A DNA stretch of 64,000 nucleotides, taken from assembly GCA_050010755.1 (NCBI GenBank), contig JBEKKK010000001.1, positions 160,001 to 224,000 of the forward strand, read 5' to 3'. Every line of letters starts with the position of its first letter. The first letter of the stretch is position 1. Below, piece after piece: positions 46,586 through 51,590 of this stretch. Under the pieces are notes generated by a model, which had not been told where the DNA came from, made no database searches, and worked only from the letters and a program-made list of their open reading frames with translations. This DNA is from Candidatus Bathyarchaeia archaeon (GTDB taxonomy: Archaea; Thermoproteota; Bathyarchaeia; Bathyarchaeales; Bathycorpusculaceae). Position numbers and translations under genes: made by a program.

Positions 46586-46662
46586 GCCTCGGTAGCCTAG
46601 CCTGGTGGGGCTCCGCCTTGGTAAGGCGGGGGTCGCGGGTTCAAATCCCGCCCGAGGCTCCA
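46586..46662 (+). tRNA. tRNA-Thr(GGU), CCA encoded
   Basis: GCCTCGG/CCGAGGC acceptor, CCGCC-TTGGTAA-GGCGG, GGTTCAAATCC. Confidence 0.96.
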
Positions 46663-51048: not shown

Positions 51049-51289
51049 ATACCCAAGATTTTAGAAAGCAAACAGGTTGAAGACACTTTCGGTTCTTAGG
51101 ACTTGTGGAAAGCTTGTCAATCTTGCCTCTCCTCAGATAACAACGGACGTTCGAGTCTGTATTGGGGGGGGAGCGAAAAATGTGCCGAAAGCGCAGAAAA
51201 ACGCGCACAAATTTAAAGCCCATTCGCTCAGAATGCCCAAAACATCGACACAAATCTCTTAAATAATCGCTCCTTTAATGAACCTAGAA

Positions 51290-51436
51290 GCCGGGGTAGC
51301 CTAGCCTGGCCAGGGCGCCAGACTCATAATCTGGAGAACAACAAACGGGGCAACGAAGGCGCCCGATGTCCAGAAGTCGCGGGCTCGAATCCCGCCCCAC
51401 TGACGGAGCAAGCCTCCGCCAGGGCGAACGGCACCA
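51290..51436 (+). tRNA. Elongator tRNA-Met(CAU) with two non-canonical introns: 45/46 (51337-51375) and 68/69 (51399-51428)
   Basis: Splicing both gives GCCGGGG...CCAGA-CTCATAA-TCTGG-AGGTC-GCGGG-CTCGAAT-CCCGC-CCCCGGC-ACCA; each intron has a 4-bp helix and 3-nt bulge geometry. Confidence 0.9.
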
Positions 51437-51590
51437 AGCATAGTCCGCAGCTTAAAGACACAATGGCCAGGCTAAGATTAACACGAGCATTTTCCCCTGC
51501 TGCTCCCGATTTGATCATTTCTCTTGTGCTATTTGGACCAGTGCAGGGGCTTCTAAGCCTTTATATCTCTTCGCTGGGTCAAGTCACTCA

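Follow-up and report, generated by a model that had tools for sequence, protein, structure and literature searches.

How does a transfer RNA (tRNA) gene that, read linearly, seems to lack its 3′ acceptor strand give rise to a working tRNA? The question is raised by a tRNA-Met(CAT) gene on the forward strand of a 64,000-nucleotide stretch of a Candidatus Bathyarchaeia archaeon genome (assembly GCA_050010755.1, contig JBEKKK010000001.1, positions 160,001 to 224,000), hereafter the window, whose numbering we use throughout. The gene (51290-51436, forward strand) lies in three pieces, interrupted by inserts of 39 and 30 nucleotides that we call introns A and B, the latter of which falls within the acceptor stem itself. 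We consider it highly likely that both inserts are genuine introns of a working gene, excised by the splicing endonuclease EndA at bulge–helix–bulge (BHB) motifs, and on modelled folds we lean towards a role for the 3′ trailer – the sequence that follows the encoded CCA – in presenting intron B to the enzyme. From the anatomy of the gene, its junctions, conservation, covariation, fold energetics and the enzymes present, we infer that the transcript is spliced, that the trailer has a part in this and in what order the steps follow. The features on which the argument turns are as follows:

51259-51266, forward strand: possible archaeal TATA-like box TTAAATAA, 24-31 nucleotides upstream of the gene, identified by eye
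51290-51336, forward strand: exon 1, tRNA positions 1-45, with the 5′ acceptor strand GCCGGGG, the D arm, the anticodon arm and the first two variable-loop bases
51325-51327, forward strand: anticodon CAT, within exon 1
51337-51375, forward strand: intron A, 39 nucleotides, position 45/46, relaxed BHB
51376-51398, forward strand: exon 2, positions 46-68, with the variable-loop end, the T arm and CCC, which opens the 3′ acceptor strand
51399-51428, forward strand: intron B, 30 nucleotides, position 68/69, strict BHB with helices on both sides (hBHBh′)
51429-51436, forward strand: exon 3, 8 nucleotides, positions 69-72, discriminator A73 and encoded CCA
51442-51448, forward strand: anti-T-stem element AGTCCGC in the 3′ trailer, complementary to 51379-51385

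The remaining four bases of the missing strand are found on the far side of intron B, which sits in a strict BHB. A central helix of CGCC (51393-51396) with GGCG (51423-51426) is flanked by an outer helix of CC (51391-51392) with GG (51430-51431), by the bulges CC^A (51397-51399) and AA^C (51427-51429), in which the caret marks the cut, and by an inner stem of nine base pairs (51400-51408 with 51414-51422) that closes a loop at 51409-51413. Intron B thus has the 4-base-pair central helix, the two opposite 3-nucleotide bulges and the flanking helices that define a BHB. The first-pass annotation of this DNA had described the helices and bulges just as we find them, whilst its account of the inner stem passed over an A·C mismatch (51403/51419) that is present in the host genome. 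The position of the cuts can be derived independently: in the canonical case, as set out in the relevant part of Yoshihisa 2014 (PMC4090602), the first two anticodon bases lie within the 4-base-pair helix, so that each cut falls two bases into its 3-nucleotide bulge. Applied to intron B, this rule places the cuts after 51398 and 51428, which is the exact acceptor-stem junction. Indeed, removal of 51399-51428 restores the acceptor stem as had been predicted, and with both inserts taken out in silico ARAGORN calls a tRNA-Met(cat) of 78 nucleotides with a perfect 7-base-pair acceptor stem and CCA. Nature provides the same experiment, as 23 intronless orthologues, among them L005 (from the same genus) and L006, read straight through the 68/69 junction and give an identical join; the borders, the position and the strict BHB of intron B therefore all stand as first described.

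Intron B is also kept well beyond this one genome, with a length of 30 nucleotides in all 48 distinct intron-bearing sequences that we gathered from Bathyarchaeia genomes and metagenomes (8 from species genomes and 40 from metagenome contigs). In the genome-derived set (n = 8), for which the intron bases were not imposed, 98.1% of cells are paired and four inner-stem pairs have changed on both sides, and the intron strand of the central helix reads GGCG in 7 of 7 distinct sequences from the genome scan, again with no constraint on the intron bases. When the 48 sequences are taken together, the proportion of paired cells is 94.6%, and it falls to 32-47% if the partners are shifted by one to three columns; compensatory changes are seen at seven of the nine inner-stem pairs, and the covariation score is 0.226 compared with 0.123 in shuffles, none of 500 of which reaches the observed value. 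The central and outer helices are 100% paired in the 48 variants, a figure partly imposed by the search pattern for the 40 metagenome sequences. Taken together, the compensatory changes, the recurrence in 48 sequences and the orthologues that read through the junction place intron B beyond chance.

The central helix of intron A is CTGG (51331-51334) with CCAG (51370-51373), its bulges are AG^A (51335-51337) and AA^G (51374-51376), and its inner helix is ACA with TGT (51338-51340/51367-51369); since no outer helix is possible around it, the motif is a relaxed BHB only. The intron at 45/46 and its relaxed motif hold up as originally proposed, and the orthologue L029, which is without intron A, reads AGGTC across the junction. 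The insert is present, at lengths of 24-41 nucleotides, in 60 of the 61 distinct orthologue 5′ parts that we parsed; its central helix is intact in 59 of these 60, and its inner helix retains at least 2 base pairs in 55 of 60 and differs by clade (ACA/TGT, TTG/CAA, GCA/TGC, GCG/CGC or TTC/GAA). On this sequence evidence, intron A is old and found throughout the order.

Does the host possess the means to remove such introns? Its genome encodes two EndA paralogues (PF01974 genes). The first, of 185 amino acids, is nearest to crenarchaeal catalytic subunits (2cv8_A at 2e-42, then 3p1z_B, 3ajv_B and 2zyz_B), and aligns without gaps over the Crenarchaea-specific loop region with the catalytic subunit of Aeropyrum pernix, 3p1z_B. 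It keeps the counterparts of A. pernix Y125, H133, K164, R157 and W183, and at the positions of K44 and R46 in the specific loop it has K39 and K41; functions are assigned to all these residues as in the portion of Hirata 2011 that treats them. The second paralogue, of 195 amino acids, has a Thr aligned with the catalytic His and fits a non-catalytic partner, and we would expect the two proteins to form an α/β heterotetramer. RtcB is encoded as well (599 bits), so that both an α/β EndA with the specific loop and the RtcB ligase, as splicing here would require, are present at the level of genes. The shortness of the last exon is the sole reason to consider a quite different route, in which EndA does not remove the 30-nucleotide insert and the transcript is cut after position 68, its acceptor end then being rebuilt by repair or editing. 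We find this barely credible: the exact bases that would be missing, and the CCA, sit 30 nucleotides downstream in all 48 variants, the strict BHB places both cuts precisely, and EndA and RtcB are to hand.

Elongator tRNA-Met is indispensable, and it matters whether the host has another gene for it. Among the 33 Rfam tRNA matches of the host genome, three have a CAT anticodon: one is initiator-like, with A1:U72 (AGCGGGG...); a second carries a canonical intron and an Ile-like acceptor, GGGCCCG... compared with GGGCCGG in tRNA-Ile(GAT), six of the seven bases being common to both; the third is the gene at 51290-51436. As TiaS is encoded in the genome, one of the three should be tRNA-Ile2, and our sorting of them into elongator, initiator and Ile2, which follows identity features, is tentative. 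BLAST with the gene as query gives a single match in the host genome and likewise in same-genus genomes that are 97% and 99% complete. Amongst 133 stricter T-arm seeds scanned for a second CAT gene, only the tRNA-Met looked tRNA-like, in a scan that was not exhaustive and that, because of its own filters, missed the initiator and Ile-like genes. The first-pass annotation had raised the possibility of another elongator Met gene, and none was found amongst the Rfam matches, by BLAST or by the motif scan; judged by its sequence, the gene is apparently the only elongator tRNA-Met found in the genome. If so, each Met codon in these widespread sediment and peat archaea would depend on two splicing events.

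The genome is 93.5% complete, which leaves room for a second Met gene and, with it, for the idea that the interrupted gene is a decaying or non-functional copy whose working counterpart sits in the unassembled 6.5%. The incomplete detection of tRNAs in an intron-rich genome – 33 Rfam matches, and a CAT-loop scan that overlooked two known CAT genes – lends this idea some further weight. However, it is hard to square with the single match in the two more complete genomes of the genus, with exons that are nearly invariant across the order and a spliced product that is a flawless cloverleaf, or with the upkeep of both BHBs through compensatory changes in 48 variants; we regard it as very improbable, and return to the gene as a functional one.

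If intron B is spliced, then it must be presented, and here the geometry of the precursor appears to stand in the way. Because the T-stem 3′ strand is taken up by the BHB of intron B, this motif and the T arm (GCGGG-CTCGAAT-CCCGC in exon 2, with C54 as the first T-loop base) are mutually exclusive. Folding the gene alone returns the T arm and no BHB. When the trailer is included, an unconstrained fold pairs 51442-51448 with 51379-51385 and the T arm opens: the trailer motif AGTCCGC matches the 5′ strand of the T stem and two loop bases over 7 base pairs, one of them G·U. Shortly 3′ of the CCA, all intron-bearing genes were seen to carry a motif able to pair with the T-stem 5′ strand and the start of the T loop; most of the other trailers have GAGCCCGC or a G·U-compatible variant. 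In L072, which has a different intron and a T arm with T54, the complementarity lies in a shifted register. From the 48 sequences, and with no such constraint supplied, RNAalifold returns the trailer helix in place of the T arm.

Intronless relatives offer a comparison. Between positions 46-56 and the trailer, the mean duplex energy is -16.1 kcal/mol for 8 intron-bearing genes and -7.7 kcal/mol for 22 intronless ones (Mann-Whitney P = 5e-5, for sequences that are related), and a match of at least 5 base pairs to the T-stem 5′ strand within the first ~25 trailer bases occurs in 44 of 48 intron-bearing versus 6 of 22 intronless trailers. Constrained folds point the same way. For sequences that end at the CCA, the T-arm conformer beats the BHB conformer in 48 of 48 cases (mean +5.7 kcal/mol for the BHB); with the trailer added, the BHB conformer is the more stable of the two in 45 of 48 (mean -5.5 kcal/mol), whilst with shuffled trailers it wins in 17.1% of 1,920 cases. 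That the 68/69 BHB competes with the T stem, as suggested at the outset, is thus supported by the fold energies.

We can therefore posit how the precursor might be processed. The primary transcript would begin a few bases upstream of 51290 and run past 51448, the first downstream run of T's lying near 51489. The trailer would pair with the freed 5′ strand of the T stem and tip the precursor into the hairpin that presents the BHB, in which positions 61-66 (the T-stem 3′ strand and base 66) pair with the 3′ end of intron B. EndA would cut both bulges of intron B, and likewise the relaxed motif of intron A, which is built with the 3′ strand of the anticodon stem, and RtcB would rejoin the exons. 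After ligation, the T arm and the 7-base-pair acceptor stem could form, the trailer would be released and the 3′ end trimmed. As the BHB seems to need the pairing of the trailer and excludes the T arm, splicing of intron B should come before maturation of the 3′ end; the fold energies and the conserved trailer element favour this order, which had been put forward from the sequence alone and which we continue to infer on these grounds. In its strongest form, the trailer would be an obligatory folding element in cis that licenses the removal of intron B and fixes a splice-first order, with intron and trailer being inherited, lost or transferred as one module; for this, we put the chances at about even.

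Several points weigh against this reading, most of them bearing on the trailer, and the first comes from the very gene that prompted it. With 25 nucleotides after A73, the BHB conformer of our gene is favoured by 1.4 kcal/mol (-26.1 versus -24.7), yet with 28 nucleotides it is disfavoured by 0.6 kcal/mol (-26.1 versus -26.7); the gene is among the three exceptions of the 48, and its trailer helix, 7 base pairs with one G·U, is among the weakest. Both RNAalifold and the unconstrained folds set the middle of the hairpin in a register other than that of the canonical BHB. Because the tRNA itself dictates the exon strand of the trailer helix, two-sided covariation cannot be seen there, whilst the distal three pairs of this helix are mispaired in 10-11 of the 48 sequences, partly through misalignment. 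The loose 5-base-pair match is also found in the six of 22 intronless trailers counted above. The 48 sequences are related, so that our counts and the Mann-Whitney P overstate their independence, and for the metagenome sequences the search pattern demanded the central-helix bases, whose invariance there is by construction and counts for nothing. Finally, the trailer motif could simply be co-inherited with the intron.

This last thought can be made into a full alternative: both EndA introns are real, but the complementarity of the trailer is idle in splicing, being either a co-inherited flank or some other signal (for 3′ processing or termination), and the BHB forms transiently or on the enzyme, unaided. 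The near-equal energies of the two conformers in our own gene, the three of 48 sequences that do not favour the BHB even with their trailers, the loose matches in intronless trailers and the relatedness of the sequences would all suit an idle trailer, as would the account in the consulted part of Yoshihisa 2014 (PMC4090602), in which other non-canonical introns are said to need refolding and flanks go unmentioned. Yet the 5-8-nucleotide motif keeps its offset whilst the spacer and the sequence beyond it diverge freely. Where the motif has changed, most substitutions turn a C opposite G into T and retain a G·U pair (27 G·U against 7 unpaired cells over the four G-C pairs); L072 has the motif in a shifted register next to another intron sequence; and shuffled trailers seldom favour the BHB. 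On balance, we judge an idle trailer to be rather unlikely, and proceed with a trailer that probably assists intron B.

The host genome (2.19 Mb, 8 contigs) can be set amongst its relatives to follow the two introns. BLAST found the tRNA-Met gene in 34 of 40 relatives, or in 35 of 41 genomes with the host included, and we read 29 orthologues, across which exon 1 is almost unchanged. The 68/69 insert is present in five of these: our own gene, the genes from three of the genus's four further species, and that of G032, which belongs to another family. One is cut by a contig end and 23 read straight through. The fourth other species of the genus is the intronless L005, which has a downstream coding region in common with the window. 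A pattern scan with an unconstrained intron, run on one genome per species, returned 57 loci, of which 44 carried bacterial titles and were not inspected; eight of the 13 inspected were a true tRNA-Met with a 30-nucleotide insert. One of these eight, L072 (identical to the gene in G044, a genome of another order), has a very different intron B sequence, a canonical 37/38 intron and no intron at 45/46. Of 58 loci from the metagenome scan, 51 were of the intron-bearing tRNA-Met type, five were chance matches in GC-rich sequence and two, identical to each other, were an unusual 3′ fragment. When 401 genomes of the class, evenly drawn, were searched with the exact pattern, four matches came back, two true (G000, the host genome, and G044) and two by chance, and within this sample intron B was not found by that pattern in 103 other genomes of the host's own family. 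Intron B is therefore rare and patchily distributed: it occurs in four of the five species of the genus, in a few further clades of the order and in a single other order.

A module of intron plus trailer, if real, would explain this patchiness, and a patchy but evidently homologous 30-nucleotide intron is in any case a useful case for studying how archaeal tRNA genes gain and lose introns. Some further loci are worth recording here. The intronless L015 (G014) carries, six bases beyond A73, an ACCCGC able to pair with the T-stem 5′ strand, which may be the relic of a lost intron-plus-trailer module or a chance match. L109 and L117, two identical metagenome loci, hold nothing of the gene but part of the T arm, a 29-nucleotide 68/69 insert, the final exon and the trailer motif GGAGCC, downstream of DNA that resembles coding sequence and not the 5′ part of a tRNA; they could represent a gene relic or the 3′ piece of a split gene. 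L046 belongs to a record titled Candidatus Acidoferrum sp., a bin with a bacterial label, and is a typical Bathyarchaeia tRNA-Met with both introns, its contig probably being mis-binned. Orthologous tRNA-Met genes also contain further inserts – in the T loop of L010, in the 5′ strand of the anticodon stem of L030, and after position 38 in L029, L098, L102, L105 and L122 – so that some of these genes would have three introns.

The T loop deserves a separate word, as its unusual first base was remarked upon from the start. It does read CTCGAAT (51384-51390) and begins with C, as claimed. Of 28 parsed orthologues, 23 have C54 and five T54, and L072 also has T54. C54 is found in genes that have the 68/69 intron and in genes that lack it, which makes it a lineage trait of this tRNA, independent of the intron.

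How new is such an arrangement? Non-canonical BHB introns are well described in Crenarchaeota, especially Thermoproteales, according to the parts of Yoshihisa 2014 (PMC4090602) that cite Marck and Grosjean 2003 and Sugahara 2008; the positions named there are 20/21, 22/23, 25/26, 29/30, 30/31, 45/46, 53/54, 56/57 and 59/60 "etc.", with 3/4 as an "extreme case". The introns of our gene resemble these in being short, protein-spliced, defined by a 3-4-3 BHB or its relaxed form and present more than once in a gene, as far as that text describes them, and also in lying outside 37/38, with 45/46 common to both, and in the α/β EndA with a specific loop of their hosts. They differ in their Bathyarchaeia host, in a position, 68/69, that is absent from the list printed in that text, and in a BHB that seems to depend on flanking sequence. 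A closer look is due to the 3/4 intron of certain Thermoproteales tRNAs (Sugahara 2008, via the passage in PMC4090602), which likewise lies inside the acceptor stem and leaves a very short terminal exon; here, the intron occupies the opposite strand and end, the short exon is the last, and the interplay is with 3′-end processing and not with RNase P.

Split and permuted tRNA genes (Nanoarchaeum, Caldivirga and Thermofilum) provide another point of comparison, as they too need sequence outside the mature tRNA, going by the relevant portions of Chan et al. 2011 (PMC3218864) and PMC4090602. In both situations a flank is needed for the helix at the splice site, and splicing must therefore precede the trimming of the ends. 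However, the flanks of split and permuted genes, as described in those portions, form the BHB itself, between two transcripts or two ends, whereas the transcript here is a single one acting in cis, and its trailer would only sequester the competing T-stem strand and extend the outer helix. The open literature that we searched gave no mention of introns at 68/69 or 69/70, printed catalogues of positions (in figures and supplementary tables) lying outside that search, and contained no description of Bathyarchaeia tRNA introns or of a trailer-assisted cis intron. We take the site to be genuine and rare for an intron, in a lineage in which such introns had not been studied, with a probable 3′-trailer helper that mirrors the BHBs built from leaders or other flanks.

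The implications reach beyond one gene. A tRNA gene can retain an intron that leaves only eight bases before its end, and splicing would restore the very acceptor stem that the intron disrupts. Perhaps more broadly, RNA outside the mature tRNA may serve as a folding helper and thereby fix the order of processing steps.

There are also practical consequences for annotation. The unspliced gene gets no call from ARAGORN, in the window or the whole genome, with the intron option on or off, and the Rfam tRNA model covers only 51294-51398 (model positions 5-66 of 71, 36.3 bits), taking intron A as an insertion and ending ahead of intron B. The warning that standard scanners may miss or truncate genes of this kind thus proved true of ARAGORN and of the local Rfam tRNA model respectively. 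In the tRNAscan-SE 2.0 paper, the portion on intron handling has candidates extended by 60 nucleotides to catch introns near the ends. As genes of this type are missed or truncated by common annotators, Bathyarchaeia genomes may wrongly seem to be without tRNA-Met.

The host genome as a whole is intron-rich and badly served by ARAGORN, several of whose 34 calls are wrong. By eye, we noted a tRNA-Phe(GAA) with an insert in the 5′ strand of the anticodon stem, at ~30/31 (G000:C1:38682-38786, minus strand), which ARAGORN miscalls as Gln; a tRNA-Gln(TTG) with a D-stem insert (G000 C1:1430800-1430896, plus strand); a tRNA-Leu(TAA) with a D-loop insert (G000 C1:596437-596540, minus strand); and a tRNA-Arg(CCT) with a displaced 5′ part (G000 C1:596640-596777, plus strand). 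A scan of 555 T-arm-like seeds for further 3′-acceptor introns in the host genome gave 16 matches, of which the tRNA-Met was the only tRNA; like the CAT-gene scan, it was not exhaustive.

The neighbours of the tRNA-Met gene, which we checked for a link to mobile elements, encode a GNAT acetyltransferase, a 4Fe-4S protein, an RPA-like OB-fold protein, a response regulator and ribose-5-phosphate isomerase, with no homing endonuclease among them. An Rfam match to sR23 on the minus strand (E = 0.74) was taken as chance. The sole tRNA called by ARAGORN within the window is an ordinary tRNA-Thr(GGT) at 46586-46662 on the forward strand, which is intronless and has an encoded CCA.

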